From positions 4,481 through 68,480 of the forward strand of contig PLTT01000013.1 of the NCBI GenBank assembly GCA_003164595.1: a stretch of DNA of 64,000 bases, in the 5' to 3' direction. The first letter of the stretch is position 1. The number at the start of each line of letters is the position of its first letter. The stretch comes from Candidatus Saccharimonadota bacterium (lineage in GTDB: Bacteria > Patescibacteriota > Saccharimonadia > Saccharimonadales > UBA4665). Shown piece after piece: positions 21,340-39,044 of this stretch. The translations under genes were made by a program, and so were the position numbers. The notes beneath the pieces are model-generated. The model was not told the origin of the DNA, searched no databases, and was given only the letters and a program-made list of their open reading frames with translations.

Positions 21340-22482
21340 ATGAAGAACATAATTTATCTAGACCACGCTGCTGCAACCCCGCTTGACCCATTAGTCCTAA
21401 AGTCCATGGAACCTTATTTCACTGAAAAATTTTATAATCCATCGGCAACTTATTTACTAGCTCAGGCAGTTCAAAAAGACCTTGAAATTGCCAGGTCGGC
21501 TATCGCCAATATTCTGGGCTCTAAGCCATCGGAAATCATCTTCACAGCCGGGGGTACAGAGGCTAATAATTTAGCCATTAAGGGGATTATGGAGCAGTTC
21601 CCCTTGAGTAATGTGGTTCTGTCAGCTATTGAGCATGATTCAGTTATGCAGCCGGGCAAACAATACAAACATAAGATCGCACCAGTTGGGCTGGATGGCA
21701 TAATAGATACTGATAAATTGCTAGACATCATCGATGACCAAACAGTTCTTTTGAGTATTATGTACTGCAATAACGAAGTTGGGTCTGTGCAACCAATCCA
21801 TAGAATAGCAACGGCGTTAGAAGCTGTTAAAAAGGCTAGGCTTTTAAAGGGTAACAATTTGCCGCTATATTTTCATAGTGACGCAGCTCAAGCAGGTAAT
21901 TATTTAGATATGCACGTTGCCCGACTGGGTCTTGATTTAATGACCATAAATGGCGGAAAAATATATGGGCCTAAACAATCAGGAGCACTTTTCGTAAAAA
22001 CAGGTATAGTACTTCGGCCACAAATTTTAGGCGGTGGTCAAGAATTTGGAATTCGTAGTGGTACAGAAAACGTAGCCGCAGATATCGGACTGGCCAAAGC
22101 TCTAAATATCTCCCAGGGAATACGTCATGAAGAGACTCAGCGTCTCGGTCAACTTCAATCGATGTTCATGGAGTTATTAAATAACAAGATTCCTGGGATA
22201 GTCATCAACGGTTCGCTTAAGTATCGCTTGGCAAATAATATTCACATAACTCTACCCGGTCAAGACAACGAGAGAATCCTAATGTTACTCGATGAGGCTG
22301 GGATTTTGGCGGCTGCCGGCTCGGCTTGTAGCGCTAGCCAAGAAGAACCTTCGCACGTTCTTAAGGCTATGGGCATTAGCGAATCTGATGCTCAGTCCAG
22401 TATTCGTCTTACTATGGGCAGACAAACAGATCAAAGTTCGATTAAAAGGGTTGTTGACGTTCTGTCATCTTTGTCAATCTAG
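21340..22482 (+). CDS. Cysteine desulfurase (class V aminotransferase, NifS/IscS-like)
   Basis: YLDHAATTP, FTAGGTEANN, a PLP-Lys region INGGKIYGPKQSGALFV, SGTENV, and the active-site loop AAGSACSAS. Confidence 0.85.
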   Translation: MKNIIYLDHAAATPLDPLVLKSMEPYFTEKFYNPSATYLLAQAVQKDLEIARSAIANILGSKPSEIIFTAGGTEANNLAIKGIMEQFPLSNVVLSAIEHDSVMQPGKQYKHKIAPVGLDGIIDTDKLLDIIDDQTVLLSIMYCNNEVGSVQPIHRIATALEAVKKARLLKGNNLPLYFHSDAAQAGNYLDMHVARLGLDLMTINGGKIYGPKQSGALFVKTGIVLRPQILGGGQEFGIRSGTENVAADIGLAKALNISQGIRHEETQRLGQLQSMFMELLNNKIPGIVINGSLKYRLANNIHITLPGQDNERILMLLDEAGILAAAGSACSASQEEPSHVLKAMGISESDAQSSIRLTMGRQTDQSSIKRVVDVLSSLSI

Positions 22483-22508
22483 TGCTTAACGATATACTAA
22501 ATATAAGC

Positions 22509-23339
22509 ATGTTCAAAAAAACGACTCTTTATTCAACTCTCTTACTGGCCATTGTTATTTTAAGTTCAACGTTCTTTGGAAAAGTTTACGCTCAACTAGT
22601 CGTACAAAGCTACGAGACTGCCCAGACATTACAAAATGGTCTAATAGTCAGCCTGAAAGTTGCCTCATCATCTGAAGTAGTACCAGCTACAAAAAGTGCC
22701 GAAAAAGAGATGTTTGGCGTGGTAACGACGCTATCATCATCTTCCATTGCCCTTTCCGGCGGTGCTTCACAGCAGGTATTTGTAGCTAATAGTGGCGATT
22801 ACCAGGTACTGGTAAGCAGTGAGAATGGCTCCATTAACACTGGCGACTACATCACAGTTTCTTCGGTGGACGGAATTGGAATGAAAGCATCAAATACCGA
22901 TGGGTACATCATTGGTAAAGCTCTCAGTAGTTTTAACCCCAGTACTAACAGTATCGGTTCAACATCGTTAGTTAACTCATCTGGTTCTAAATCAACGGTT
23001 CAAATTGGACGTATTCTGCTTGCCGTGGGAGTTAGTCATAATCCCTTGCAGGTGCCTACTCATTCGGATTTACCAGCTTTTTTGGTAAATGCCGGTAACA
23101 GTGTTGCCAGTAGACCAGTCAGTACCTCGAGGTTAACACTAGCTTTTGTGATTCTATTAATTAGCTGTGCTATCACGGCTACTCTTCTTTATTCGGGGGT
23201 CAGGACTGCTTTCGTAGCAATTGGTCGTAATCCATTGTCTAGGCCATCAATTTATCACGGCTTACTGCAGGTTATCTTAACAAGTATCATGGTTTTTATT
23301 ATTGGTCTTTTTGGGGTATATTTATTACTGAGGTTTTAA
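22509..23339 (+). CDS. Membrane protein: signal peptide/anchor, about 190-aa Ser-rich extracytoplasmic domain, C-terminal ATP-synthase-c-like hairpin
   Basis: ATG at 22509 (MFKKTTLYSTLLLAIVILSSTFFGKVYA); an alternative GTG lies at 22482. The C-terminal two TM helices are joined by the loop AIGRNPLSRP. It sits immediately upstream of the atp b-like gene. Confidence 0.55.
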   Translation: MFKKTTLYSTLLLAIVILSSTFFGKVYAQLVVQSYETAQTLQNGLIVSLKVASSSEVVPATKSAEKEMFGVVTTLSSSSIALSGGASQQVFVANSGDYQVLVSSENGSINTGDYITVSSVDGIGMKASNTDGYIIGKALSSFNPSTNSIGSTSLVNSSGSKSTVQIGRILLAVGVSHNPLQVPTHSDLPAFLVNAGNSVASRPVSTSRLTLAFVILLISCAITATLLYSGVRTAFVAIGRNPLSRPSIYHGLLQVILTSIMVFIIGLFGVYLLLRF

Positions 23340-23377
23340 ATATCAGAATCTTTAAAAAATGATGGGCAAAAAATAAA

Positions 23378-24001
23378 ATGAATAACGGGTGGAATATAGC
23401 GATAATTGTCCTACTGGTCCTAGTGGCTGGGGTGCTTATTTGGTTGGCGCTGACTATAAGTAAACTAAGACTACCGGCCAAACATTTAACAAAAGGCACA
23501 TTCGAGGATCAGGCCAAACGCGACGTTGAGCACATATTTAATGACGAATTTCGCGAAGAGCTAAGAAATCGTGGCCGTCTGCACTTTGAAAAAATAATTG
23601 GCGAGAATGCTATGTTTCTTCAGCAAGACCTGCGCCTAACTACTTCCCAGGTCAACGAATATATCAAGAAAGAGATTACCGAAAAACTCCAGGGGGAGTT
23701 TACTAAGTATGAGCAGACAATTAGTGATGCCAAGCAAATCGCCATTGATTCAATTACTAAGACAAACACCCAACTAGAACAGGAAAGTCATACTCTCAGC
23801 GTTCAACTACACCAAGAATTTGACGGTGAAAAAGCCCGCATGATAAAAAGATTTGATGAACACATGGCTGAGATAGTAAATTATTATGTTCTTTCCGCAG
23901 TCGGTAACCAAGTAGACCTTAACGATCAACTTGAATTTATACTTAAAGATCTGCAAGAAAATAAAGAAGACATATTCAAGGACATTAATAATGGCGCCTA
24001 A
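23378..24001 (+). CDS. atpF: ATP synthase subunit b-like stator protein
   Basis: A single N-terminal TM followed by a long, highly charged predicted helix. It sits directly before the delta-alpha-gamma-beta-epsilon genes. Confidence 0.55.
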   Translation: MNNGWNIAIIVLLVLVAGVLIWLALTISKLRLPAKHLTKGTFEDQAKRDVEHIFNDEFREELRNRGRLHFEKIIGENAMFLQQDLRLTTSQVNEYIKKEITEKLQGEFTKYEQTISDAKQIAIDSITKTNTQLEQESHTLSVQLHQEFDGEKARMIKRFDEHMAEIVNYYVLSAVGNQVDLNDQLEFILKDLQENKEDIFKDINNGA

Positions 24002-24494
24002 AGAATCTCATCAGGTAATACTACCGTCACAGGTAACTACTACTGGCGATCTGAACCGCTTGATTAGGGAACTAGATACTCTTGATGACTATCTAAACCA
24101 GGCGGCACTACGTAGTGCGCAAGAGGCCTCTAAACTGCCCCAAACCAGCAGAGTTTTGGAAGAATTAGCAGCATCTCACTCTTTGCAACTTTTAAGGCCT
24201 GGTGACCGAAAAGCTTTTAAGGCGATACTTGGTGAAATCAAACAACAAGCCCCAACAATTCACTTTAGCTTTGCGTCGCCGCCGTCGCTAACTTTCTTAA
24301 ATAAACTGGTAACCTGGCTGAGAACCAATATTGACACAAACTTGTTGCTGAAAATTGGACTGGAACCATCCATTGCCGGTGGTTGTATTGTCAGAACTAC
24401 AAACAAGCAATTCGATTTTAGTCTGCGCAAGCACTTTGTCCTTCAACACGACCTACTGGTCAACGTATTAACTGGGCGAAAAGAGTCGCAGTAG
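23991..24494 (+). CDS. atpH: ATP synthase subunit delta (OSCP-like)
   Basis: Start chosen at the ATG at 23991 (MAPKES...). The C-terminal OSCP-like signature is SIAGGCIVRTTNKQFDFSLRKHF, and the gene lies before atpA. Confidence 0.65.
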   Translation: MAPKESHQVILPSQVTTTGDLNRLIRELDTLDDYLNQAALRSAQEASKLPQTSRVLEELAASHSLQLLRPGDRKAFKAILGEIKQQAPTIHFSFASPPSLTFLNKLVTWLRTNIDTNLLLKIGLEPSIAGGCIVRTTNKQFDFSLRKHFVLQHDLLVNVLTGRKESQ

Positions 24495-24497
24495 ACC

Positions 24498-26000
24498 ATG
24501 AGTGATAATAAACGATTCGATAAACTGGTTGAGTCCGGTAACCCGGTGGGTGAAGTAACGGCGATTAATAGGTTTCTGATTCGTGCTAGCGGATTACAGC
24601 CTATTAACATACATGCTTTAGTTATGTTTGAAGATGGCAGTAATGGTTTTATCCAAGCCATTTTTGAAGACTATGTGATGATTCTTCATTTAGGATCTAA
24701 GAATCTTAAAATTGGCATGATGGTTGCGATGCAGCATCATGAGCTAGTCACTAAGGTAGGGAAAAGCCTCATTGGTCGCGTAGTCTCTGTATCGGGCAAT
24801 CCTCTTGATGGTAAGGGCCCGATAACTGCCGAAACCACCTGGCCGGTTTTTGCCGATGCCCCAATGCTATATAAAAGGGAACTATTAGATACCCAGCTAG
24901 AGACTGGCATAACAATGCTTGATGCTCTTTTTCCTCTGGTGAGAGGGCAGCGTATTGCAGTTCTCGGAGATAGTAAGGTCGGGAAAAGCACCTTGGTTAC
25001 CCAGATTGCTATAAACCAACGAACATCTGACGAGATTGTTATATATTGCCTGATCGCCAAACGGCGTAGTGATATTGACAGTTTAATTAATCAGCTGGAG
25101 GCCAATAAAGCGATGGAAAAATCTATCGTCGTTGTATCGGTCATGTCAGAATCACTAGTTTTGAGCTACCTTGCTCCTTATGTGGCGTGTTCTATTGGTG
25201 AATACCTTTGGCAGAAAGCCGATCAAGATACCATAGTAATTTACGACGACCTAACATCTCACGCCCAAAGCTACCGAGAGATTGCACTTTTATCCGGTAC
25301 CAGCCCAGGCCGGGATTCTTACCCTGGAGATATTTTCTACGCTCATTCTAGCCTTCTGGAGAGGGCCGGCAAACTGGCTGGCAATCATAAAACCCAGACG
25401 ACCATTCCTTTGGTTTTGACGCCGAGCGGAGATATTACGGCCTATCTGCCGACTAATATTATGTCAATTACTGACGGGCAGTGGATCCTAGATGAAAAAA
25501 TTTTCCATGAGACGGTCCGGCCAGCGCTGAGCATAGGCCTTAGCGTTACGCGTGTTGGCGGTCGTGGGCAAAACTCCAGACAAAAAGACCAAGGGGTGCG
25601 CACTACAGCTGTCTTAAGTAACTATGCCGAGGCACTAGAGTTTTCACACTTCGGTTCCGAAATGGCCCTTCAATCCGCTGGCAACCTAACTTTAGGGAAA
25701 AATCTCTATGAAATTTTCAATCAGAAGCCCGGTGAATTATATAATCTGGTTTGCCAGCAGTTAATGATTGACATAGCCCTAGGGGTTAATCAGGATATTG
25801 AGATCCTAAATACGCAGCTGCTTAAAAGCAAAGTTGAAGAAGCTGCTAGTAAAATAAAGTCTGAGGATGATTTCGACAAAGTTCGTGACCATCTAAGATC
25901 TCTTTGCGTGGGCAGGAGCTTAGCTGGTGCGCCAACCCCAGCTACAGAGGAGGCGCCTCCGGCTAGTACCGAAGCCCCAGCCGTGGAGGCCAAAAAATGA
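24498..26000 (+). CDS. atpA: ATP synthase F1 alpha subunit (divergent)
   Basis: 500 aa with Walker A GDSKVGKST, IVIYDDLTSHAQSYREIALL, PGRDSYPGDIFYAHSSLLERA and ITDGQWIL. It has an Ala/Pro/Glu-rich C-terminal tail. Confidence 0.9.
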   Translation: MSDNKRFDKLVESGNPVGEVTAINRFLIRASGLQPINIHALVMFEDGSNGFIQAIFEDYVMILHLGSKNLKIGMMVAMQHHELVTKVGKSLIGRVVSVSGNPLDGKGPITAETTWPVFADAPMLYKRELLDTQLETGITMLDALFPLVRGQRIAVLGDSKVGKSTLVTQIAINQRTSDEIVIYCLIAKRRSDIDSLINQLEANKAMEKSIVVVSVMSESLVLSYLAPYVACSIGEYLWQKADQDTIVIYDDLTSHAQSYREIALLSGTSPGRDSYPGDIFYAHSSLLERAGKLAGNHKTQTTIPLVLTPSGDITAYLPTNIMSITDGQWILDEKIFHETVRPALSIGLSVTRVGGRGQNSRQKDQGVRTTAVLSNYAEALEFSHFGSEMALQSAGNLTLGKNLYEIFNQKPGELYNLVCQQLMIDIALGVNQDIEILNTQLLKSKVEEAASKIKSEDDFDKVRDHLRSLCVGRSLAGAPTPATEEAPPASTEAPAVEAKK

Positions 26001-26836
26001 GGCAACTCTTAGACATAGACAAAGAACGATCTAGTATGATGACCATCGTGCAGTTAACTAGCGCTTTTGAAACCCTAGCCAGCATGCGAATTTCCCAGAT
26101 TAAGAACCAGGTACTTCAGGCACAGGGCTTTTTCGATGAATTATGGAATATCTATATACAGCTGCGAGTCGATAGCATATTTCGCTTTGGTAGACACAAC
26201 AGCGAGAAGGTAATCGATAAAGAGCTATATATCCTAATTACTGCTTCTGGTGGTTTTAGTGGTGATATTGACCAAAGAGTGATTAACATGATGTTGGAAA
26301 AATATGACAAAGACAAACAAGATATAATCGTGATTGGTCATCACGGATCGATATTGCTGGCACAAGCCGGCATCCCATACAAGAGGTTTTTTGAACTTCC
26401 CGCCAGTGATCACAACATTAATGTCGAACCACTAATACACGAGATTAGTCAGTACAAGAATAGCTTTGTTTATTATCAAACCTATCTATCTCTGATGAGT
26501 CAGGAGATAAAACGCCTAGAGTTAAGCACAGCTATAAAACAGTACAGCTCGATGGCAGCCGAGAATAAGGAAATTATTAGTGAGCAAACTTATATTTTTG
26601 AACCAAGTGCCTTTGACGTAGCCGCTCACTTGGAACGATCTATGCTGCAAATCACCCTCGGCCAAGTAATCTTTGATTCAAAATTGGCCCAATATGCCAG
26701 TAGATTCCGGGCAATGAGTGCTGCCAATGATAAATCAAAGGAATCATACTCCGACCTCAATACCTTGTATAATCGTACCAAACGATCAATACGTGATTCT
26801 CAACTCAAGCAAATTATAATCGGACTAACTAGGTAG
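25997..26836 (+). CDS. atpG: ATP synthase F1 gamma subunit (divergent)
   Basis: 279 aa with ATGA overlap to atpA. It has N- and C-terminal helices with a gamma-like end (ASRFRAMSAANDKSKE...LYNRTKRSIRDSQL..II). Confidence 0.75.
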   Translation: MRQLLDIDKERSSMMTIVQLTSAFETLASMRISQIKNQVLQAQGFFDELWNIYIQLRVDSIFRFGRHNSEKVIDKELYILITASGGFSGDIDQRVINMMLEKYDKDKQDIIVIGHHGSILLAQAGIPYKRFFELPASDHNINVEPLIHEISQYKNSFVYYQTYLSLMSQEIKRLELSTAIKQYSSMAAENKEIISEQTYIFEPSAFDVAAHLERSMLQITLGQVIFDSKLAQYASRFRAMSAANDKSKESYSDLNTLYNRTKRSIRDSQLKQIIIGLTR

Positions 26837-26846
26837 GTATAAAATT

Positions 26847-28154
26847 ATGGGACAAGGAATTATTCAGACAGTTAAAGACTTAGTGGTCATGGTGGTATTT
26901 GATGATGATTGCCCAGATATCAATGAACTAATACTTGTTGATAATCCAAAGAAGACTCTTCTACTGGTTGATAGTGTATCTGTGGGCAATAAGGCTCTAT
27001 GTCTAAATATCTATGGCGATAGAACCATCCAAAAGGGTATGGCTGTGAAAAATACTGGTAAAAGCATTGAGATTCCGGTTGGAGATAAGACTATCGGTCG
27101 AATGCTTGACGCGCTGGGTAATCCAATAGATGGTTTGGACTCACTTGATAGCCCGGACATTGCTAGGCGGAACATTTTCGATACTCCTGTTCAGAATGAT
27201 ACATTTAAAATTGCTAAACCAGAGATACTCGAAACAGGTGTCAAAGTTATTGATTTCTTTACGCCGTTTGTAAAGGGACGCAAAATTGGGATTATTGGCG
27301 GAGCTGGCGTAGGCAAGACTATCCTCATGATGGAACTCATGCACAACGTTGCTATGAGTGGCTCTGGACTTAGCTTCTTTACTGGTATTGGCGAACGCAT
27401 TAGGGAAGGCCATGAGTTATACATGACTCTTAAGGATAATAATTTGTTAGGTAGTACCTGTATGTTCTTCGGTCAAATGAATGAAAACCCTGTCCAGAGA
27501 GGTCTGGTGGCAATATCTGCCGTTACGTTGGCAGAATATTTTAGGGATGATCAACACAAAGACGTTCTCTTCTTCGCTGACAATATGTATCGTTACGTGC
27601 AGGCAAAAAACGAAGTATCGACGATTATTTCTCAAATACCGGCCGAAGGCGGCTATGAGCCAACAATTTTTAGTGATGTAAAAACGCTGCAAGATCGACT
27701 TAGTTCCAATGACAAAGGTTCTATCACTGCCGTTGAAACAATCTATGTACCGGCAGATGACTTGTCTGATCCTGCCGTCCAGATGATCCAGCACGAATTA
27801 GACTCCACTATCGTATTAAGTCGAAAAGTTGCCGAACAGGGCATTCGACCGGCAGTTGATTTAATTAATACCAGCTCAGCCCTGCTGGCGCCAGACATAG
27901 TCGGCGATCGCCACTATAACCTTAGCGTTCAGGTTCAAGGGCTGCTACAAAAGTACGAATCACTCAAAGGGATTATTGCCATTATTGGCGAGAACGAACT
28001 ATCACCTAGTGACCGGACAGATTACGGTAAGGCTAAACTACTGATAGAGTATTTTTCTCAGAACATGTCTGTTATGGAGACTCTAAATGGCGTGAAGGGT
28101 GAACAATTTACCAGGGAACAAACCCTTCAAGGCGTTGAGGCGATAGTTGCATGA
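26847..28154 (+). CDS. atpD: ATP synthase F1 beta subunit
   Basis: Walker A GGAGVGKT, GIGERIREG, GQMNENP, LFFADNMYRY, YVPADDLSDPA and IIAIIGENELS. Confidence 0.92.
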   Translation: MGQGIIQTVKDLVVMVVFDDDCPDINELILVDNPKKTLLLVDSVSVGNKALCLNIYGDRTIQKGMAVKNTGKSIEIPVGDKTIGRMLDALGNPIDGLDSLDSPDIARRNIFDTPVQNDTFKIAKPEILETGVKVIDFFTPFVKGRKIGIIGGAGVGKTILMMELMHNVAMSGSGLSFFTGIGERIREGHELYMTLKDNNLLGSTCMFFGQMNENPVQRGLVAISAVTLAEYFRDDQHKDVLFFADNMYRYVQAKNEVSTIISQIPAEGGYEPTIFSDVKTLQDRLSSNDKGSITAVETIYVPADDLSDPAVQMIQHELDSTIVLSRKVAEQGIRPAVDLINTSSALLAPDIVGDRHYNLSVQVQGLLQKYESLKGIIAIIGENELSPSDRTDYGKAKLLIEYFSQNMSVMETLNGVKGEQFTREQTLQGVEAIVA

Positions 28155-28201
28155 TAAATGAATCCATGAAAATCATTAATAATAGAGTATAGGACAAAGC
28201 C

Positions 28202-28534
28202 ATGGCAAATCCTGATACAACCAAAACCGCTCAAACAACATTGACTGCAGCGTCAGCGACAAAACAAGCTACCGTTGATTCTTCTGGTAAGGAGATGATT
28301 CATATAAAGGTTTTTTCACCCTACAAAACCTACTATAACTTCATAGGCTACAGTATATCTGGCGTTAACGATACTGGCCCTTTTGATATTCTCCCCCGCC
28401 ATCACAATTTTATTACACTACTGAACCCCTGTGTCTTGGACATTAGGGTTCAGAGTGGCTCTAAGCGAATTCGAATCTCAAAAGGTGTAATGCACGTTAA
28501 AGCTGACAAAGTAGTTGTTTTTCTCGATGTCTAG
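28202..28534 (+). CDS. atpC: ATP synthase F1 epsilon subunit, beta-sandwich domain only
   Basis: 110 aa with the core IHIKVFSP...GPFDILPRHHNFITLL...GVMHV typical of the epsilon N-domain. No C-terminal helical hairpin. The N-terminal about 30 aa are low complexity. Confidence 0.65.
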   Translation: MANPDTTKTAQTTLTAASATKQATVDSSGKEMIHIKVFSPYKTYYNFIGYSISGVNDTGPFDILPRHHNFITLLNPCVLDIRVQSGSKRIRISKGVMHVKADKVVVFLDV

Positions 28535-28554: not shown

Positions 28555-29604
28555 CTAAAGAACAACGTAGTCAAAACCGAAAGTGGTGCTAGCTGGTGCT
28601 GCGGAATCACTGCATATGCTGAAATTTGTTGTAGCCCGAGTAATATAATAGGCGAGCCCTCCGGCAGCACTGCCGACCGGAGTTATAACTACGTATGGTG
28701 TTGCAGAAAAGCTATGAGCGAAAGTTACCGTTATAAAGCAGCCTGCTCCGGGAGAACTGCCAGTATTAATTGTGACGGCTCCAGCAGTGTCTGTTCCGCT
28801 AAGTGAAACAGTACCTCCGTTACCAAGGGCACTACCGCCAGGACTGGGGTTTGGCGAGGTGCCAGAGACTAGTATGTGGCTTGCAATTGTTAGATCGTCG
28901 CTAAGGTCAAGGCTCTGTACTATAAGTTGATTGGCCGTAACAGTGCCGCTGAAACTCGATGCGCCACTGACGTCCAGAGTATTGTTGATTGCAACTTGTC
29001 CTTGTATAGAAGCATTGCCTGACACTGAGAGTTTGCCGGCTTGTATCTGTGCAATGTTGGCTGTTCCAGAAACAGTTACGGAAGAAAGATTCAAGGCCGA
29101 GCTAACATTAATTGTTCCAGCTACGTCCAAATCCTTACGGATTAGCACTTGTCCGCTAAAAATTGAATTAGGCTCAATATTTAGTACCTGATCTGAGCTA
29201 CCAATGGTCGTTGACCCAGAAGCCAATAACTCTAATTGACTAGCGCTGAGGTTTTGTGGCTTTATAGTGTTTTGGCTGGAACCTGAAGGGGTTTTAATAA
29301 AGGCAATGACCGTAACCGCAATACCTATTGTTATAACTAACCCAAAAATCAAGAGATAAACATTTATTCGCTGGAGTATGTCAGATATATGATTTTTCTT
29401 TGTCTCGGCTGCTGCCGGAGTAGGCGTACCCTCTGTAGTAGACCTAGCTTCGATCTCGTCTGATCTGACGGACTTTATTTCACCCTGTCCTGGGGTTGGG
29501 TCAGTGGCCTTGGGTTCTGCCGGCGCGGGAGCATTATTTAAACCAATCCCCTCTAAGGACTCTGTCTGCTCGTTTGGTTGTTGTGGTGGGGCTGGTGGTT
29601 CCAT
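28555..29604 (-). CDS. Type II membrane-anchored surface protein with beta-helix-like repeats and a possible lectin-like C-terminal domain
   Basis: Pro/Glu-rich N-terminus, one TM (INVYLLIFGLVITIGIAVTVIAFI), then repeats of the type L.VSG.A.I.G.V (LNLSSVTVSGTANIAQIQAGKLSVSGNASIQGQVAINNTLDVSGASSFSGTVTAN). It is divergent from the paralog array. Confidence 0.6.
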   Translation of the reverse strand: MEPPAPPQQPNEQTESLEGIGLNNAPAPAEPKATDPTPGQGEIKSVRSDEIEARSTTEGTPTPAAAETKKNHISDILQRINVYLLIFGLVITIGIAVTVIAFIKTPSGSSQNTIKPQNLSASQLELLASGSTTIGSSDQVLNIEPNSIFSGQVLIRKDLDVAGTINVSSALNLSSVTVSGTANIAQIQAGKLSVSGNASIQGQVAINNTLDVSGASSFSGTVTANQLIVQSLDLSDDLTIASHILVSGTSPNPSPGGSALGNGGTVSLSGTDTAGAVTINTGSSPGAGCFITVTFAHSFSATPYVVITPVGSAAGGLAYYITRATTNFSICSDSAAPASTTFGFDYVVL

Positions 29605-29701: not shown

Positions 29702-30469
29702 ATGCATAAGTGGCGGAGAATAATTACTATAGTTATTGTTGGAATACTAATTCCGTTCGGCAGTTTTGGTATAGCTGGGGCTACTGTTTACACGTCGCCA
29801 CATTACGAAGTGAACCAAGTCTTCTTTGGTAGTGGCGGGGGCCTAAGCTCCAGCACGAATTATGAATCAAAAATCGCTATTGGCGAGGTTGGGGTAGGTA
29901 ATACCAAGGACTCAACTTATCAAGCAGATTCTGGTTTTAATACTAACGATGCTCCTTATCTTCAGTTTACAGTGACTAGCTCGGCAACTAGTCTTGGTAC
30001 GCTCTCTACGACGTCCGTAGCAACTGCGACAGGAACTTTCTCAGTCAAGGACTATCTATCACAGGGTTATGTCGTTGAGCTAGCTAGTCCACCGCCAGCG
30101 ACTGCATCGCACACTCTTACAGCCCTATCTTCGCCTACACTGTCAACGCCCGGGACGGAACAATTTGGTATCAATCTGGTTGCCAACACTAGCCCTAGCG
30201 AGGGAGCAATACCGGTTCAGAACCCAAGTAACACTTATAGCTTCGGCTCAGTTACCGCTGGCGCGTCTGGTCCTAATGGGACAACCGTTGCGGCTGGCTA
30301 TAGCAGCCCAAACCATTTTAAATATAATCAAGGAGATATAATCGCCGCCTCCAATCAGAGCTCCGGTGAAACGGATTACACGATATCTTACATTATGAAT
30401 ATAACCAACACCACGACAGCCGGTAACTATACATTCAACCAAGTGCTCATTGCATTACCGACTTATTAG
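29702..30469 (+). CDS. Secreted surface protein, short divergent member of the tandem family (member 0)
   Basis: Signal peptide ...GIAGA then TVY. T/S/A/G-rich. The C-terminal half aligns by eye with that of 36913..37983 (LQFTV/LEFCV, EQFGINLVAN/DQFGLNLRAD). It ends in an aromatic residue (..ALPTY). Confidence 0.7.
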   Translation: MHKWRRIITIVIVGILIPFGSFGIAGATVYTSPHYEVNQVFFGSGGGLSSSTNYESKIAIGEVGVGNTKDSTYQADSGFNTNDAPYLQFTVTSSATSLGTLSTTSVATATGTFSVKDYLSQGYVVELASPPPATASHTLTALSSPTLSTPGTEQFGINLVANTSPSEGAIPVQNPSNTYSFGSVTAGASGPNGTTVAAGYSSPNHFKYNQGDIIAASNQSSGETDYTISYIMNITNTTTAGNYTFNQVLIALPTY

Positions 30470-30526
30470 TCGACTTATTACTGTCTAATAAAAAACGCTT
30501 ATGATACGCTTATAAGGTAGAGGGTT

Positions 30527-31786
30527 TTGAGCAAAATTATGAGGTACTATCCTAGAACGCGTGGGAGAATATTCTACAGGGGCGCACTGCTTACTGTCGC
30601 GTTTGTGGTGGCTATCTTTGGGCTTTTGGAAGCTAGACCATTAAGTAAAGTTGATGCGGCTCAAATTACTACTCGTAGTATTACTATGAGTAGTTCAAAC
30701 GCTGCTGCCGCTGCCAATAGTAATACTTATCAAATTCGCTTTACCGCCGCTTCGAGCTATACGGTCAAAGCCATAGTTGTAGATTTTTGTTCCAATGATC
30801 CAATTGTTGGTGATGCAACTTGTACGGCTCCAACCGGTTTCGATGTTGGTGGCGCAACTCCAACAATAATTACAAGTTCCGGAACCGACCCGACTCTTTC
30901 TGCGACCCTAGGGACAGGCTGGACAGGAGCAGGCACAAACCTAATTACTGGATCTCAGTACAGAACACTTACCATAACAAACTCTACGGGTGTGGCGGTA
31001 ACCAGTGCTTCGGTAGTCTCTTTTGATATGTCAAACGTTACTAACCCAACTACGGTAGGTTCATTTTATGCACGAATCCTAACCTACACAACCACTACGA
31101 CGGGCTATGCTCCAGGCTCAGAAGGTAGCTACAGCGACTATGGTGGCGTGGCTTTGTCAACAGCCGCCCTCATTACTATTACTTCCAGAGTGCAGGAGCA
31201 ACTCAGCTTCTGTGTCTATATAAGTTCCTGTGGTACCGCCGCTACCCTCAATCTAGGTGACTCTCACGATGTTCTATCTACCACGGCACCTGCCATCGCC
31301 GCCGGTGCAACTTACGGCGTATATTACAGTCTCAGTACCAATGCCTCGCATGGAGCAATGGTCTATCTTAAGGGCAGTACATTAACGTCTGGGGCATATA
31401 CTATACCTGCAGCTGGATCATCAGCGTTTACCTACAGCGGAGTTAACAATGATTTCTTTGGGCTTTGTACGTATAACTCTGCCCTCACCGCTGGGTCAGC
31501 ACCAACAGTTATTGGTGAATATCAAGGAGTTGGTGCTGGCGGAACCTGTGCTGGCGCAACCAATAACTCTGGCGGAACTCTTTCAACAACAAATCTTGGA
31601 ACGCCTTATGCGACCTTTGGTTTCAACAGCACCAACACAGGTTCTACCTATGGTGACCAGCTAGCTTCGATTGCTGCTCCTGGATCATCAGTTAATGCTA
31701 TAGTACTCGCCGCAGGTGTTAACGCAACCCAAGGCGACGGTATTTATTCGACCACACTACAGCTAATAGCCACCGGGGCTTATTAG
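30527..31786 (+). CDS. Secreted two-domain surface protein, tandem family member 1
   Basis: Signal peptide ..KVDA then AQITTRS. Family motifs VVDFCSNDPIVGDATCTAPTGF, VTNPTTVGSFYARILTY, DYGGVALS, VQEQLSFCVYISSCGT and NLGDSHDVLSTTAP; ends GIYSTTLQLIATGAY. Start is TTG at 30527 or ATG at 30539. Confidence 0.8.
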   Translation: MSKIMRYYPRTRGRIFYRGALLTVAFVVAIFGLLEARPLSKVDAAQITTRSITMSSSNAAAAANSNTYQIRFTAASSYTVKAIVVDFCSNDPIVGDATCTAPTGFDVGGATPTIITSSGTDPTLSATLGTGWTGAGTNLITGSQYRTLTITNSTGVAVTSASVVSFDMSNVTNPTTVGSFYARILTYTTTTTGYAPGSEGSYSDYGGVALSTAALITITSRVQEQLSFCVYISSCGTAATLNLGDSHDVLSTTAPAIAAGATYGVYYSLSTNASHGAMVYLKGSTLTSGAYTIPAAGSSAFTYSGVNNDFFGLCTYNSALTAGSAPTVIGEYQGVGAGGTCAGATNNSGGTLSTTNLGTPYATFGFNSTNTGSTYGDQLASIAAPGSSVNAIVLAAGVNATQGDGIYSTTLQLIATGAY

Positions 31787-31811
31787 TTGTCGTTATTACA
31801 ACAATATCTAT

Positions 31812-31840
31812 TTGTATATGCGTAAGCATTACTGTATAAA
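31812..31840 (+). promoter_or_regulatory. Sigma70-like promoter, copy 1 of a duplicated promoter-leader
   Basis: TTGTAT (31812-31817), a 17-nt spacer ATGCGTAAGCATTACTG, then TATAAA (31835-31840). AAGGAGA RBS and a GTG start at 31868 follow. A near-identical unit lies at 34353. Confidence 0.55.
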
Positions 31841-31867
31841 TTGTACATAGGTAAGGAGAACAAACAG

Positions 31868-33103
31868 GTGAGTTTTGGCAAATTCAGATATCGTAGCGTC
31901 ACTGCAGTTGTAATTATGGTAATGCTACTAGTTTTAGCAGGACCAAATTTTCTTTCTTCGTTTAAGGTACACGCCGTAGATGGTCAGATTACCTCACGTT
32001 CCATTCAGATGGGGGATGATAGCTCTAACACTAGCGGCGGTACAACTAAATACCAGGTGACTTTCAAGCCATATACTTCCGCAACCATTTACGGTGTAAT
32101 TGTCGATTTCTGTAACACTGACCCAATTCCTGGCGATGTTTGTACCGCTCCAACAGGCTTTAGTGACTACGTTACTACTGCCTCAGCTTCAAACGTTAGC
32201 GGGCTATCGGGGACTTGGGTGGCCGCACAAGCTAATTCTGGTCGAACTTTTGAGTACACCAACGCGAGCGGTCAGTCTATGCCGACCTCTACTGCTGTCT
32301 CGTTTGCGATTAACAATGTTACTAACCCAACTGTTGTCGGTACTTTCTATGCACGTATTTTTACATTCAACTCTAACTCTGGGGCCGGTAGCGCCACGCA
32401 GTGGCTTACGACGGCTAATGGTACTGATATTACCAATGATTTTGATTACGGTGGAATTGCCTTGTCAGTTGCTGCTACGATTAACGTCACTTCAAAGGTT
32501 CAGGAACAAATTACTTTCTGTGTCTATATTAGTTCCTGTGGCACCGCCGCTACCGTTAACCTGGGTGACTCTCACGATGTCCTATCTACCACGGCACCCG
32601 CTGTGGCCTCTGGTGCGACCTATGGAGTCTTCTATAGTCTTAGCACTAACGCGTCCAATGGTGCAGTGGTTTATTTGAAAGGTGCTACATTGACCTCTGG
32701 AGCTAATACCATCCCTGCAGCGGGCGCAACACCCTATTTATATAGTGGTACTAATAACGATTTCTTTGGGCTTTGTTCGTACAACTCGGCCGTTACCGTT
32801 GGATCAGCTCCAACGATTCCCTCATCGGAATATCAAGGAACGTCTAATGGTGGCACCTGTTCAGGATTAGCTACACTATCTGACGTTAATACAACCCAGA
32901 CGACGGCAGCTCTTGGGGCGACCTATGCGACCTTTGGCTTTAACAGCACCAACACAACATCTACCTATGGTGATGAGCTAGCCGCTATCACTGCTCCTGG
33001 CGCGTCAGTTAATGCTGTCGTGTTGGCAGCCGGCGTAAGCGTAACCCAAGCTTCTGGTGTTTATACGACAACATTACAACTAATTGCCACAGGCACCTAT
33101 TAA
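31868..33103 (+). CDS. Secreted two-domain surface protein, tandem family member 2
   Basis: GTG start 8 nt after AAGGAGA (the track ORF begins at the TTG at 31841). Signal peptide ..KVHA then VDGQITSRSIQMGDD. Carries all family motifs and ends GVYTTTLQLIATGTY. Confidence 0.8.
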   Translation: MSFGKFRYRSVTAVVIMVMLLVLAGPNFLSSFKVHAVDGQITSRSIQMGDDSSNTSGGTTKYQVTFKPYTSATIYGVIVDFCNTDPIPGDVCTAPTGFSDYVTTASASNVSGLSGTWVAAQANSGRTFEYTNASGQSMPTSTAVSFAINNVTNPTVVGTFYARIFTFNSNSGAGSATQWLTTANGTDITNDFDYGGIALSVAATINVTSKVQEQITFCVYISSCGTAATVNLGDSHDVLSTTAPAVASGATYGVFYSLSTNASNGAVVYLKGATLTSGANTIPAAGATPYLYSGTNNDFFGLCSYNSAVTVGSAPTIPSSEYQGTSNGGTCSGLATLSDVNTTQTTAALGATYATFGFNSTNTTSTYGDELAAITAPGASVNAVVLAAGVSVTQASGVYTTTLQLIATGTY

Positions 33104-33116
33104 GCGAATAATAAAA

Positions 33117-34328
33117 ATGAACACTAGACTATTTACCCAACGAATTACCCCAGCTTACGTAGTTTTCGTAATGCTACTCATGCTAACAGTACCAGTTATC
33201 TTCAGCGTCGCTAACGTACATGCAGCCGGTGGACAGGTAACAAACCGAACGCTCCAAATGGGTGACGATACTATTAACACTAGTGGCGGAACGACTAATT
33301 ATCTAGTATCTTTTAATCCGTTTTCCACCAAAACAATTTATGGTATTATTGTTGATTTTTGTAACACTGACCCAATCCCTGGCGATGTTTGTACTGCTCC
33401 AACTGGTTTTGGAGTAGGGGCCACACCAACATTTACTGCCGTAAGTGGTGTTAGCAGTAGTTGGGTAGCTGCCTCGGCCAATTCCCAGCGTACGTTTGAA
33501 CTAACCTATGCCACCGGCGCCGCTCTATCGTCCTTAACCCCAGTATCATTCTCCATTAACACTGTAACCAACCCGACTGTTGTTGGTACATTTTATGCCC
33601 GTATATTTACTTTCTCCGCTTACAGCGGCGCTGGCAGTGCAGCAGCCTGGCTAACAGCCGGTAGTACAGGTCAAGATATAACAGATAATTGGGACTACGG
33701 CGGTATTGCTCTGTCAACTGCCCAAACGGTTATTGTCACTTCCAAGGTACAGGAACAATTAACCTTTTGTGTATATATAACGATCTGCGGAACCCAGGCA
33801 ATTATTAATCTGGGTGATGCCCACGATGTACTGTCGACCACAGCTCCCTTTGTTGATAATACAACTACATATTTTCTTAGCACGAATGCCTCTCATGGAG
33901 CAGTCGTATATTTGAAAGGCGCCACTCTGACTTCCGGGACCAACACGATTCCTGCAGCTGGGGCAACACCCTTTTTGTACGGAACGCCTTCTACGAATAT
34001 AGATTTCTTCGGTATCTGCAGTTATAACACGTCTGGTATAGTGCCGACTGTTGCAACGGATTACCTAGGGACATCTAACAGTGGTAGTTGTGCAAGCACA
34101 GTAACCGATACCGGCGCAACGGCAGTTGTAACTTCCCTTGGTACTCCATATGCCACCTTTGGCTTTAATAGCACCAACACAACATCTACCTATGGTGACC
34201 TTTTGGCAACACTGGCCGTACCGGGTATTACTACTAATCAACTTGCTCTGGCAGCTGGCGTTAATTTAACTCAGCCATCGGGTATCTATACCACTACTTT
34301 ACAACTTATCGCAACCGGTAGTTATTAA
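33117..34328 (+). CDS. Secreted two-domain surface protein, tandem family member 3
   Basis: ATG at 33117 (MNTRLFTQRITPAYVV..) avoids overlap with member 2. Signal peptide ..NVHA then AGGQVTNRTLQMGDD. Ends GIYTTTLQLIATGSY. Confidence 0.8.
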   Translation: MNTRLFTQRITPAYVVFVMLLMLTVPVIFSVANVHAAGGQVTNRTLQMGDDTINTSGGTTNYLVSFNPFSTKTIYGIIVDFCNTDPIPGDVCTAPTGFGVGATPTFTAVSGVSSSWVAASANSQRTFELTYATGAALSSLTPVSFSINTVTNPTVVGTFYARIFTFSAYSGAGSAAAWLTAGSTGQDITDNWDYGGIALSTAQTVIVTSKVQEQLTFCVYITICGTQAIINLGDAHDVLSTTAPFVDNTTTYFLSTNASHGAVVYLKGATLTSGTNTIPAAGATPFLYGTPSTNIDFFGICSYNTSGIVPTVATDYLGTSNSGSCASTVTDTGATAVVTSLGTPYATFGFNSTNTTSTYGDLLATLAVPGITTNQLALAAGVNLTQPSGIYTTTLQLIATGSY

Positions 34329-34352
34329 ATCCCTAGCTTCTCTTAAAAGTAG

Positions 34353-34381
34353 TTGCATATGCGTAAGCATTACGCTATAAA
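34353..34381 (+). promoter_or_regulatory. Sigma70-like promoter, copy 2 of a duplicated promoter-leader
   Basis: TTGCAT (34353-34358), a 17-nt spacer ATGCGTAAGCATTACGC, then TATAAA (34376-34381). GGGGAGAACAAACA and a TTG start at 34412 follow. Confidence 0.55.
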
Positions 34382-34411
34382 CTATAGGTATATATTAGGG
34401 GAGAACAAACA

Positions 34412-35617
34412 TTGAGTTTTGGCTCATTCACAGGACGCATTATTCCGGCATACATGGCATTTCTAGTGTTATTCATGCTACTTATACCGGCTCTTCTATT
34501 GACAGATAGGGTTACTGCTGCCGGTGGACAGGTACAATCCCGCTCTATCCAAATGGGTGACGACACGATTACCACTAGCGGTGGTACGACCAAATATCTT
34601 GTAACCTTTAATCCGGCATCAACTAAAACTATTTATGGGGTTATAGTGGATTTCTGTAACACTGACCCTATCCCGGGTGATGTGTGTACCGCACCAACTG
34701 GCTTTAGCGTCGGCTCTGGATCATATACGGCCGTTAGTGGTGTTTCGTCGAGTTGGACTGGTACCAGCACTAACAGTGGCCGTACATTTGAGTTAACCTA
34801 TGCCACTGGGTCTGCTTGGACGTCAGCGACTACCGTTTCCTTCTCGATTAACGGTGTCACTAACCCTACGGTAGTAGATACTTTCTATGCCAGAATATTA
34901 ACTTTCTCGGCAACCAGCGGCGCTGGTAGTGCCACGCAGTGGCTTACAACGACTAATGGTAGCGACAATACCAATGATTGGGACTATGGCGGTATAGCTC
35001 TTTCGACAATACAAACAATTATCGTCACTACTAAGGTTCAGGAACAACTTACTTTCTGCGTATATATTACGTCCTGCGGTACCCAGGCATCGATAAATCT
35101 CGGTGATGCCCATGACGTGCTATCGACTACGGCACCTGCTGTTGATAACACCACTACTTATAGCATTGTTACCAATGCGTCGCATGGGGCAGTCGTTTAT
35201 TTGAAAGGCTCTACCTTAACATCTGGCTCTAATACCATCCCAGCAGCGGGCGCAACAGCCTTTTTGTACGGGACACCCTCGACAAATATAGATTTCTTTG
35301 GCGTTTGTAGTTATAACACCTCTGGTGAGGTGCCGACTGTGGCAACTTCATATCTAGGCACTTCGAACGGCGGTACTTGTGCTGGTACTGTCACTGACAC
35401 CGGGATAACAGCAGCACTAAGCTCCCTAGGTTCTCCATATGCCACTTTTGGCTTTAATAGCACCAACACAACATCTACCTATGGCGACCTTCTGGCAACT
35501 CTGGCTACAGCAGGGGCAAGCGTGAATCAAATTGCTCTGGCCGCAGGGGCAAACCTAACTCAACCGTCGGGTATTTATTCAACCACCTTACAGCTTATCT
35601 GTACCGGCACGTACTAG
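34412..35617 (+). CDS. Secreted two-domain surface protein, tandem family member 4
   Basis: TTG start. Signal peptide ..RVTA then AGGQVQSRSIQMGDD. Carries the family motifs and ends GIYSTTLQLICTGTY. Confidence 0.8.
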   Translation: MSFGSFTGRIIPAYMAFLVLFMLLIPALLLTDRVTAAGGQVQSRSIQMGDDTITTSGGTTKYLVTFNPASTKTIYGVIVDFCNTDPIPGDVCTAPTGFSVGSGSYTAVSGVSSSWTGTSTNSGRTFELTYATGSAWTSATTVSFSINGVTNPTVVDTFYARILTFSATSGAGSATQWLTTTNGSDNTNDWDYGGIALSTIQTIIVTTKVQEQLTFCVYITSCGTQASINLGDAHDVLSTTAPAVDNTTTYSIVTNASHGAVVYLKGSTLTSGSNTIPAAGATAFLYGTPSTNIDFFGVCSYNTSGEVPTVATSYLGTSNGGTCAGTVTDTGITAALSSLGSPYATFGFNSTNTTSTYGDLLATLATAGASVNQIALAAGANLTQPSGIYSTTLQLICTGTY

Positions 35618-35701
35618 CCGTAGTAATTAATACATTATATAACTTGCAATTATTTGCTATTAGGTATAAATTCTAGTTAGGAACTATAAAAACAAAAATA
35701 A

Positions 35702-36895
35702 ATGAAAATGACCTTTAATCGGATTACTCCAGCCTACGTGGTTATAGTACTACTAACTGTTCTGCTCGCCCCAACATTTCTATTAACAGGGGGAAAAGTT
35801 CATGCTAGTCCTGGTCAAATTCAGTTCCGCTCTATTCAGATGAGTGATGACACTGTTAATACCAGTGGCTCAACAGCTAACTATAATGTTCAGTTTAATA
35901 CTGCTACTGCCGGAGCTATCGGAGCGATTGTTGTTGATTTTTGTAATACCGACCCAATACCAGGCGATACGTGCGTAGCCCCAGTAGGTTTTACCCTAAC
36001 TGGTGCTAGCTATATTTCAGGGACAAATACCTCTGGTTATACGGTTAACACCGCTAACTCTGGAAGGACTTTTGAGATATCCAATGCCGGTGCCTCTAGC
36101 TTACCATCAGCCACTACAGTCTCATTCGCTATTACAGGGGTTACTAACCCTACTGTTGTCGGGACATTCTATGCTCGTATATTCACTTTTGCATTGCCTG
36201 GTGATGCAGCTACCTGGATAGCCGCCGCAGCAGACGGTAGCACGACAACAGGTTATGTCGACTACGGTGGCATAGCCCTTTCAACAGTACAAACAATCCT
36301 AGTAACTTCTAAAATACAGGAACAGATTAGCTTCTGTGTTTATATAGTTACTTGTGGAACTCAAGCCGCCATTAACTTAGGTGACTCGCATGATGTATTA
36401 TCAATATCTGCACCTTTTGCGGATAACACGACTACTTATTACCTTAGTACTAATGCTTCTCATGGCGCCGTAATCAACCTAAAAGGCAATACTCTTCAAT
36501 CCGGCACTAATAGCATCCCTGCTGCAGGAACGACACCCTACCTTTATGGTACCCCTTCGACCAATATTAACTTCTTTGGAATGTGTAGTTATACTACCTC
36601 GGGCGAAGTACTAACAGTTGCTACGGACTATGTGGGCAACTCTAACGGCGGTAGCTGTGCTAGCGTCGTAACCGATACTGGTGGGACGGCAGTTATAACT
36701 TCCCTTGGAACACCATATGCCACCTTTGGCTTTAACGCTACGGCTACAACTTCCACGTACGGCGACCTACTAGCTACTATGCCCGTAGCTGGTGCTACTA
36801 TTGGCCAGGTTGTTCTGGCCGCTGGGGTAAACGTAACTCAGCCATCTGGCATCTATACCACTACCCTACAATTGATAGCAATTGGTACTTACTGA
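35702..36895 (+). CDS. Secreted two-domain surface protein, tandem family member 5
   Basis: Signal peptide ..KVHA then SPGQIQFRSIQMSDD. Contains VVDFCNTDPIPGDTCVAPVGF and IQEQISFCVYIVTCGT. Ends GIYTTTLQLIAIGTY. Confidence 0.8.
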   Translation: MKMTFNRITPAYVVIVLLTVLLAPTFLLTGGKVHASPGQIQFRSIQMSDDTVNTSGSTANYNVQFNTATAGAIGAIVVDFCNTDPIPGDTCVAPVGFTLTGASYISGTNTSGYTVNTANSGRTFEISNAGASSLPSATTVSFAITGVTNPTVVGTFYARIFTFALPGDAATWIAAAADGSTTTGYVDYGGIALSTVQTILVTSKIQEQISFCVYIVTCGTQAAINLGDSHDVLSISAPFADNTTTYYLSTNASHGAVINLKGNTLQSGTNSIPAAGTTPYLYGTPSTNINFFGMCSYTTSGEVLTVATDYVGNSNGGSCASVVTDTGGTAVITSLGTPYATFGFNATATTSTYGDLLATMPVAGATIGQVVLAAGVNVTQPSGIYTTTLQLIAIGTY

Positions 36896-36912
36896 GGATC
36901 TAGCTAATTGCT

Positions 36913-37983: not shown

Positions 37984-38027
37984 TGTGTATGTTATTATTG
38001 ATTTGAATTAAGAGGTGTATTAAATCT

Positions 38028-38987: not shown

Positions 38988-39044
38988 ACATTCTCTTTCT
39001 ATAACGCTTGCGCTATTATTAGACAGAGTGCTAAAGAAGCGTCT

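Follow-up and report, generated by a model that had tools for sequence, protein, structure and literature searches.

A second F-type ATPase gene cluster in Saccharimonadia that includes an exported protein ending in a carboxylate-less, c-like hairpin

The 64,000-nucleotide stretch analyzed here (the window; Candidatus Saccharimonadota bacterium, assembly GCA_003164595.1, contig PLTT01000013.1, positions 4,481 to 68,480 of the forward strand) carries seven tightly packed + strand genes at 22482-28534 in the order X, b-like, delta, alpha, gamma, beta, and epsilon (Table 1). The cluster is a second F-type system, separate from the F1Fo ATP synthase resident in the same genome. Its first gene, herein X, encodes an exported β domain fused to a two-helix transmembrane hairpin that resembles subunit c and has no Asp or Glu in either helix. 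We consider it rather probable that the seven genes encode a self-contained F1-like rotary ATPase, herein F1-X, which would hydrolyze ATP, be uncoupled from ions, and bear an extracellular crown.

Two F-type systems in one genome

An earlier note on the window, made from its letters and its open reading frames (ORFs), had described this gene order, a cysteine desulfurase gene upstream of X, and the absence of a and free c genes from the cluster; all three descriptions stand. The window ORFs and profile scans with PF00119 and PF00137 gave no a or c gene in the cluster, and no cluster ORF is a free c subunit of 70-90 aa with a helix-2 Glu or Asp; the intergenic gaps are too small to leave room for an a gene. 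The gene upstream of X is a class-V aminotransferase/cysteine desulfurase (PF00266, 171 bits). The note had left two options, namely that the a and c genes lie elsewhere or that an F1-like motor is attached to a noncanonical membrane or extracellular partner.

A search of the whole source genome (868 kb, 18 contigs, 95% complete) for atpB and atpE found a single canonical pair: exactly one PF00119 match (C5:7341-7985) and one PF00137 match, both on contig C5. The two genes belong to a complete canonical operon, atpB-E-F-H-A-G-D-C (C5:7248-13634), accompanied by an AtpI-like gene. It encodes an a subunit of 274 aa, a c subunit of 92 aa (with a GRNPE loop and a helix-2 Glu), an epsilon of 142 aa with C-terminal helices, and its own b, delta, alpha, gamma, and beta; window alpha and beta are 32% and 41% identical to their canonical counterparts. 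Because the C5 a and c genes sit in an operon with a full set of partners, they are not the missing parts of the window cluster, which is therefore a second, divergent F-type system. Both options thus hold: canonical atpB and atpE do exist elsewhere, on C5, as members of a separate operon, and the window cluster is a distinct F1-like system with a noncanonical membrane and extracellular partner. Nor does the cluster depend on canonical Fo, since 39 of the 92 Saccharimonadia genomes with a beta paralog have no canonical c, and four genomes of other classes in the phylum sample carry the cluster yet no a subunit anywhere.

The F1 subunits of the window are divergent, and all fall under the NCBIfam cut-offs of the canonical equivalogs. 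On NCBIfam atpA models, alpha scores 390 against a cut-off of 554 and 358 against 484; beta reaches 428 bits on TIGR01039 (cut-off 463) and gamma 79 against 194, under every NCBIfam gamma cut-off. Delta scores 21.4 bits on PF00213 (cut-off 22.3; E 2.8e-4) and matches NCBIfam delta models down to E 3.8e-6. The b-like protein has no Pfam match, and neither it nor X matched any family in the Pfam and NCBIfam scans; in hhalign it shows a weak colinear similarity to canonical b over the C-terminal 100 residues (P 4.7e-4). Its transmembrane helix contains no conserved charge, including no conserved Arg, and a stator Arg in this helix was rejected as a candidate for that reason.

The catalytic motifs were judged on alignments of 64 beta and 70 alpha orthologs. 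Beta keeps the P-loop GGAGVGKT, the catalytic Glu in GERxRE (GERIRE), and the Walker B Asp; alpha keeps the P-loop GDSKVGKS and the Arg-finger region RPALSIGLSVTRVGG. The alpha Walker A that had been called unusual is present and conserved in the family, and the epithet was an overstatement, the motif being a valid GxxxxGK[ST] P-loop; the Ala/Pro/Glu-rich tail of alpha is likewise present and is not conserved. The beta C terminus is ~28 aa shorter than the canonical one, and epsilon is shortened as the earlier note had said, having only its N-terminal β-sandwich (PF02823, residues 33-108) and no C-terminal helical domain. In bacterial F1Fo the C-terminal helices of epsilon inhibit ATP hydrolysis. 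With the P-loop, catalytic Glu, and Walker B of beta and the Arg-finger region of alpha kept, and with epsilon lacking the inhibitory domain, the head looks catalytically competent and active, and its sequence would suit a dedicated hydrolase. The epsilon ORF opens with a 31-residue Thr/Ala-rich leader of low complexity (28202-28294), followed by an internal ATG at 28295 (MIHIKVF…); given this ATG and orthologous ORFs of 85-117 aa, the leader may go untranslated and the annotated start may be too early.

The earlier note had also proposed a phylogenetic placement, which was carried out for beta. A quick maximum-likelihood tree, for which alpha subunits served as the root and in which long-branch effects are possible, places 31 canonical betas (30 from Patescibacteria and that of E. 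coli) in one clade with a Shimodaira-Hasegawa-like approximate likelihood ratio test (SH-aLRT) value of 98, and the X-type betas lie outside it. The latter form two clades, one of Saccharimonadia with one other-class sequence and one of the remaining other classes. The X-type lineage is therefore old or fast evolving and is no recent copy of the resident operon. Against Protein Data Bank (PDB) sequences, window beta lies nearer to ordinary betas, with 358 bits to that of Bacillus PS3 against 268 bits to the G1 beta of Mycoplasma mobile. Other Patescibacteria carry further second beta genes that score 510-610 bits on TIGR01039 and lie in long frames of 671-765 aa (for example, G195:C112:500-1861, G168:C5:15493-16851, G203:C5:48565-49920, G226:C32:5974-7332, and G177:C7:59327-60676); the divergent F-type ATPases to which these belong are not of the kind encoded by the window cluster.

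The hairpin of X and its relation to subunit c

X had been described as a membrane protein of 285 aa. The ORF from GTG 22482 is real, but the true start is probably ATG 22509, because the close homologs are all 276 aa; residue numbers herein follow the 285-aa version (X285). The AlphaFold2 (AF2) model, which like all structure predictions here is of a single chain, was built with a 41-sequence alignment (predicted local distance difference test [pLDDT] 85) and comprises an N-terminal hydrophobic helix, a β domain (41-186), a short helix, and a hairpin (215-249 and 251-284). The N terminus is a probable cleavable signal peptide, cut after VYA and before Q38, and alignment A1 shows conservation of the A-Q at the putative cleavage site. 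Given this signal peptide and the exported domain, we infer a topology in which the β domain is extracellular, helix 1 crosses the membrane inward, the loop is cytoplasmic, and helix 2 crosses back outward; in the predicted structure this is the topology of subunit c plus a domain on the outward-facing N terminus.

At least 536 homologs of X were found, "hypothetical" wherever their source names them; X itself belongs to no Pfam or NCBIfam family, its sole NCBIfam match at E ≤ 0.1 being unrelated (E 0.011). The β domain resembles phage capsid decoration and cement proteins (Foldseek E 2e-4 to 1e-3, TMt 0.43-0.60); one X ortholog gave weak PHROG head-decoration matches, and X285 itself gave no match in PHROGs. 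X is under strong purifying selection, with dN/dS ~0.08 against the L004 ortholog (79% identity); the value is given for X alone because most genes of the window show saturated dS against L004. Residues R241, Q263, and Y280 are near-invariant and GRNPL is invariant (alignments A1 and A2).

The two helices of the hairpin are joined by AIGRNPLSRP at 23217-23246, where the earlier note had located it. In c subunits the R(Q/N)P loop contacts gamma and epsilon. At this loop, each of the 31 canonical c subunits sampled from the class has A(V/I/L)GRNP(E/D), and the X family has (A/S)(I/V)GRNPL. An hhalign comparison of 258 family hairpins with these 31 c subunits gave P 1.4e-6 (probability 90%, score 34.8), against a maximum of 14.8 in 100 column shuffles. 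For the syntenic X orthologs of other classes, which read G(I/V)EA(L/V)GRNPLA at the loop, the comparison gave P 1.8e-9 (probability 96%, score 49.7, shuffle maximum 18.9) over 47 columns that run from the last part of helix 1 through the loop and the whole of helix 2. When a hidden Markov model (HMM) of the hairpin was run against the 7242 genome ORFs, the best match beyond its own family was the canonical c subunit (E 0.086). The AF2 model of the hairpin alone has a pLDDT of 92, and c subunits take the first 28 places among its PDB matches, with TM-scores of 0.5-0.9, identity up to 22%, and root-mean-square deviations mostly of 1.2-1.9 Å among the closest. The X ortholog of genome G108 scores 20.9 bits on PF00137 in the genome scan and 12.3 bits as a protein (threshold 24), and the hairpin of a giant protein in genome G077 passes this threshold with 26.6-27.5 bits.

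Several results give no support to descent from c or call for caution about it. PF00137 was matched neither by X285 nor by 31 family hairpins at E ≤ 10, among the 25 of 27 matched families that were listed; X285 has no sequence-profile match in PDB; and an HMM of canonical c run against all genome ORFs ranks X fifth at E 0.76, an uninformative result within the noise. In the Saccharimonadia hairpins, the likeness to c is concentrated in ~24 columns around the loop. The Foldseek E-values of the hairpin are not significant (0.2-1.6), as expected for a hairpin of 74 residues, and a likeness to the c fold is general among helical hairpins; ECOD, for example, places type IV secretion pilins under it. 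The hairpin could also be a general membrane anchor, since X paralogs sit away from ATPase genes, and the β domain and c-like hairpins recur in giant surface proteins. On the strength of the shared loop, the two hhalign results, the ranking in the genome HMM search, and the fold matches, and with the direct sequence-profile searches silent, we conclude that the hairpin is very probably a derivative of c that lost its ion site. The c-like hairpin of the earlier note is thus upheld by profile-profile comparison; of the family check proposed with it, the Pfam search gave no PF00137 match for X285 among the families listed, and the hhalign similarity is significant.

Neither helix contains an Asp or Glu, and the column of the c carboxylate aligns to S268/I269 (..LTSI..), both as previously read from the window. 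In other classes this column holds Ala, Phe, Ile, Val, Leu, or Ser, and no member examined has a carboxylate at the canonical position; 237 of the 258 family hairpins have no Asp or Glu anywhere in helix 2. Position 263 was considered as the site of a displaced carboxylate and rejected, as it is Glu in only ~17 of 258 hairpins and lies five to six positions before the canonical site, near the cytoplasmic interface.

Relatives of X occur elsewhere in this and other genomes. A second X paralog with the same architecture and the loop SIGRNPLA lies away from ATPase genes in the source genome (L117 7554-8444; contig C16 33553-34443), and on its 3' side is a gene, cut off by the end of the contig, for a fibre-like protein with a type-II anchor; no homology was found between this protein and the fibre-like protein encoded in the window at 28555-29604. 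In genome G068 (L157/L158, contig C3 705-37358), an X paralog (705-1631) lies directly 5' of giant ORFs of 3763, 4079, and 2853 aa. In two of these three, a scan of the whole genome located a match to the X β domain toward the C-terminal part, and their last ~60 residues look, by eye, like the C terminus of the window fibre-like protein. Genome G077 has neither X nor a beta paralog; it encodes a 2568-aa ORF (L116 2746-10452; contig C1 84745-92451) that ends in a c-like hairpin without carboxylate (…AMEAIGRNPYARGKIIG…), and a gene for a PamC/D-like chaperone stands just 5' of it.

Conservation of the cluster

A scan of one genome per Genome Taxonomy Database species found relatives of X in 526 species genomes, nearly all labeled Saccharibacteria or unclassified. 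Eighty loci were retrieved, and wherever the contig is long enough, X lies directly 5' of the b-like gene and the order X-b-delta-alpha-gamma-beta-epsilon is always kept. Co-occurrence was assessed in 151 genomes sampled evenly across Saccharimonadia, in which the beta paralog (46-72% identity) is clearly set apart from canonical beta (40-45%). Full-length X is present in 93 genomes and the beta paralog in 92; 89 have both and 55 neither, an odds ratio of ~400, uncorrected for phylogeny. All four genomes with X only and one of the three with beta only are fragmented or incomplete assemblies.

Synteny in Saccharimonadales also takes in the unrelated genes metRS, tatD, and csd, and the stronger argument thus comes from outside the class. 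Eight loci in other Patescibacteria classes were picked solely because they hold a low-scoring second or sole beta gene. All eight show the same seven-gene order with quite different flanks, and their X-like proteins (262-308 aa) have a signal peptide, a GD(F/Y)xTSSxxPGxGxKA motif, and a GRNP hairpin. The system is thus common in the Candidate Phyla Radiation (CPR) and spread across the phylum. The earlier note had said that its reading would fall if a canonical atpB-atpE pair were found elsewhere together with no profile similarity of the hairpin to c, or if the fused gene were not conserved beside atp genes in relatives. The canonical pair does exist; the similarity is there, and wherever a related locus is of sufficient length, the fused gene stands just before the b-like gene.

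The genes are transcribed. Contigs from two peat metatranscriptomes, at least 99% identical to the window, cover X, delta, alpha, and gamma, and one RNA contig (23241-23499) bridges the X/b-like junction; metatranscriptome contigs can carry over DNA, which tells against the weight of this result.

Table 1. Window coordinates of the cluster genes, the parts of X, and the neighboring fibre-like gene
Feature	Coordinates	Strand	Remarks
X	22509..23339	+	Exported β domain fused to carboxylate-less, very probably c-derived hairpin; 276 aa from the probable start (285 aa from GTG 22482)
Putative Sec signal peptide of X	22509..22592	+	KK n-region, hydrophobic core, VYA then Q38; from sequence reading
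Exported β domain of X	22593..23051	+	~Residues 38-190; conserved GDYITxSSxxGIGMKA motif
c-like transmembrane hairpin of X	23124..23336	+	Helices 215-249 and 251-284
Cytoplasmic loop GRNPL of X	23223..23237	+	Invariant; equivalent to the R(Q/N)P loop of c subunits
b-like peripheral-stalk protein	23378..24001	+	207 aa; single N-terminal transmembrane helix, then long helical region
Delta (OSCP)-like	23991..24494	+	Likely start ATG 23991; ORF opens at TTG 23931
Alpha paralog	24498..26000	+	PF00006, 221 bits (cut-off 29.5)
Gamma paralog	25997..26836	+	PF00231, 97.9 bits (cut-off 39.9)
Beta paralog, catalytic subunit	26847..28154	+	PF00006, 212 bits (cut-off 29.5)
Epsilon, N-terminal β-sandwich only	28202..28534	+	PF02823 residues 33-108, 41 bits (cut-off 27)
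Fibre-like neighbor	28555..29604	-	Type-II membrane anchor; bactofilin-type repeats; PF04519, 28.6 bits

Proposed machine, alternatives, and known rotary ATPases

In the F1-X machine that we propose, alpha3beta3 with gamma and the short epsilon would form the catalytic head and central stalk, and delta with the single-helix b-like protein would form the peripheral stalk holding the head. The gamma-epsilon shaft would sit on an oligomer of X hairpins through their GRNPL loops, and the β domains would form an extracellular crown on this X ring. With no a subunit and no carboxylate, coupling to H+ or Na+ should be absent, and with it both ATP synthesis and ion pumping. If the complex cannot couple to ion flow, the energy of hydrolysis must become motion or conformational work that reaches outside; ATP hydrolysis would thus turn or otherwise drive the oligomeric X ring, and the crown would do mechanical work at the cell surface. 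Two considerations count against this scheme. The X ring, its binding to gamma and epsilon, and its rotation are steps that we infer, as are hydrolysis as the working direction and a surface output. Further, as there is no a subunit, no evident part holds the b-like stalk against the ring, and this leaves the generation of torque unexplained.

Nearby genes supply candidate targets of the crown, namely fibre proteins with a type-II anchor and giant surface proteins. Of the Saccharimonadales loci that extend far enough past epsilon, nearly all have a fibre-like gene directly 3' of it on the opposite strand; the one in the window may or may not be part of the system. Five of the eight other-class loci have, upstream of X and divergent from it, a gene for a large protein with an N-terminal MerR/excisionase-like helix-turn-helix (HTH), one transmembrane helix, and a long fibre-like exterior (L149 10654-12999, L150 787-3591, L152 3-3767, L154 1-3630, and L155 13657-14940); the five are mutually homologous. 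These HTH proteins are a further candidate target, and so are the giants that share the X β domain or end in a carboxylate-less c-like hairpin. Apart from these, the other-class flanks hold no functional partners, only genes for an M50 protease, a Wzy-like/tetratricopeptide-repeat protein, FtsW, an H+-PPase, trigger factor, and LeuRS. A bolder version of the model, which we put forward tentatively and would not call likely, is a phylum-wide transmembrane rotary actuator in which an ion-blind c-like ring with a phage-decoration-like crown drives fibres or giants for movement in host contact. The X ring would then be a socket or drive by which host-contact structures are moved, twisted, extended, or retracted, and some giants could co-assemble into it, since they carry the crown domain or a c-like hairpin of their own.

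An unlikely alternative to F1-X is a membrane-tethered ATPase with no turning ring, in which the b-like protein and X (monomeric or in a small oligomer) would merely anchor an enzyme whose energy goes into secreting, unfolding, or assembling surface fibres, Pam pili, or giants. FliI, FliJ, and FliH, relatives of F1 subunits, act in this manner in flagellar and type III export, and window alpha and beta score 180-210 bits on FliI/SctN models. No stator for torque is evident; fibre-like genes adjoin the cluster, and so does a Pam pilus operon (window 29702-39959), of the type described with donor-strand-exchange pilins and membrane-anchored chaperones (bioRxiv 10.64898/2026.03.03.709456). The Pam chaperone and the beta paralog are positively associated in the 151 genomes (62 with both, 42 with neither), but 30 genomes have the cluster with no detectable Pam chaperone and 17 the chaperone with no cluster. 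An obligate link to the Pam pilus was rejected on these counts, the association being too loose. The same preprint proposes that the pilus assembles without a dedicated machine, and the flanking genes in other classes are housekeeping genes. Also against a tether, the cluster keeps the full rotary set of alpha with beta, gamma, the ring-binding domain of epsilon, and delta, with a c-derived hairpin at the c position.

Quite improbable, in our estimate, is a divergent synthase or pump that is still ion coupled by unconventional chemistry, using polar residues of X (Q263 and T267/S268; Asn or Thr in other classes) and a stator. The polar residues of helix 2 are conserved, position 263 is Glu in a few hairpins, and many CPR genomes carry this cluster only, while published reconstructions call the F-type genes of CPR an ATP synthase. 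Such coupling is hard to reconcile with the absence of an a subunit from the cluster and from the whole of at least four cluster-bearing genomes, with a canonical position devoid of carboxylate in every member examined, with the displacement of the Gln/Glu position toward the cytoplasmic interface, and with a b-like helix that has no conserved Arg; the organism also keeps a normal F1Fo.

Less credible still is the notion that X is an unrelated, merely syntenic surface protein beside F1-like proteins that form a soluble or differently anchored ATPase. X paralogs and c-like hairpins do occur away from ATPase genes, and Saccharimonadales synteny does reach housekeeping metRS, tatD, and csd; against this, the seven-gene order persists across classes with wholly different flanks, X and the beta paralog co-occur strongly (89 shared among 93 and 92, uncorrected for phylogeny), X occupies the c position with the c loop motif, and an RNA contig runs across the X/b junction. 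That the cluster is a functionless, decaying duplicate of an ATP synthase operon, as the divergence of every subunit below curated cut-offs might suggest, is scarcely tenable and already contradicted by the conservation data: the distribution is phylum-wide, catalytic motifs are conserved, dN/dS of X is ~0.08, frames are intact everywhere, the genes are transcribed, and in many genomes this is the sole F-type cluster.

Published readings of CPR genomes make the F1-X interpretation consequential. Reconstructions routinely count alpha, beta, and gamma genes as an F-type ATP synthase, and a survey of Saccharibacteria genomes counts the F-type ATPase module as proton driven (both PMC11659515). The Pam pilus preprint reads ATP synthase genes beside the pam operon as "ATP production" (bioRxiv 10.64898/2026.03.03.709456); given the synteny in the window, those genes are probably this cluster. 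If the complex cannot couple to ions, organisms with this cluster only have no ATP synthesis driven by proton-motive force (PMF), and if the actuator reading is true, many CPR bacteria credited with an "ATP synthase" have no PMF-coupled one. The transposon sequencing (Tn-seq) gene table of Southlakia contains one canonical atp operon (atpI, a, c, b, delta, and alpha among the entries listed) and lists few ATP synthase genes in all; this organism is therefore unlikely to have a second cluster, and its Tn-seq data are uninformative on F1-X. Full-text literature searches found no paper that joins CPR, Patescibacteria, or Saccharibacteria with F1-like, atypical, or second ATP synthases. Because the c origin of its membrane part is still readable and its peripheral stalk is kept, F1-X would be a good system for studying how rotary motors are repurposed; cultivated, genetically tractable Saccharibacteria exist (PMC10633639), and cryo-electron microscopy of Mycosynbacter is under way (PMC13278184).

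Set against canonical F1Fo (atpIBEFHAGDC, as in the C5 operon of the same genome and in E. coli), F1-X has the same gene order from the c position on, the same catalytic motifs, and the loop and predicted topology of c. It differs in having no a subunit, in a ring protein that has no carboxylate and adds an exported domain of ~175 aa, and in the shortened epsilon and beta C termini and the scores below curated cut-offs described above. Like the N-ATPases, it comes from a divergent second F-type operon in a genome that also encodes the housekeeping enzyme. N-ATPases keep a, an ion-binding c, and AtpQ/AtpR; F1-X has neither a nor c, and on TIGR03305 and TIGR03324 it scores 396 against 752 for beta and 312 against 750 for alpha.

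The nearest analogs of F1-X are the F1-like X0 ATPases of Mycoplasma. These comprise Type 2, the gliding motor of Mycoplasma mobile (G1-ATPase; PMC11864180), and Type 3 (MMCAP2_0575-0581/MSC_0618-0624), which is needed for MIB-MIP antibody cleavage and also encodes an exported protein with two C-terminal transmembrane helices (PMC12994834, PMC3369863). In both F1-X and the Mycoplasma systems, a second F1-like cluster stands beside a genuine F1Fo in a genome-reduced, host-dependent bacterium, holds homologs of alpha, beta, gamma, and epsilon with no a or c genes, and is presumed to hydrolyze ATP for work at the cell surface. X matches the exported two-helix subunit of Mycoplasma (MMCAP2_0577/MSC_0620 type) in architecture. 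The comparison with Mycoplasma X0 made in the earlier note is thus an apt analogy, and the model scores and the beta tree place F1-X in another family. Membership was judged with the NCBIfam models MSC_0618/0619/0622 and MMOB1660/1670, and F1-X falls short on every one: beta scores 370 bits on MSC_0618_beta (cut-off 570) and 326 on MMOB1670 (850), alpha 245 against 520, and gamma 17 against 95, with a further score of 312 against 600. F1-X keeps delta and a b-like stalk, both absent from the Mycoplasma clusters; Mycoplasma X0 has a protein with 12 transmembrane helices, whereas the F1-X cluster has no multispanning gene product of this sort (PMC12994834). The two-helix protein of F1-X is recognizably c derived. 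We therefore regard F1-X as a variant of the F1-like X0 kind that is real, conserved, and expressed, and for which we found no describing publication; it forms a distinct family, phylum-wide where Mycoplasma X0 is confined to one genus-level group. It would be a second, independent case, after Mycoplasma X0, in which an ATP synthase was put to use beyond the cell.

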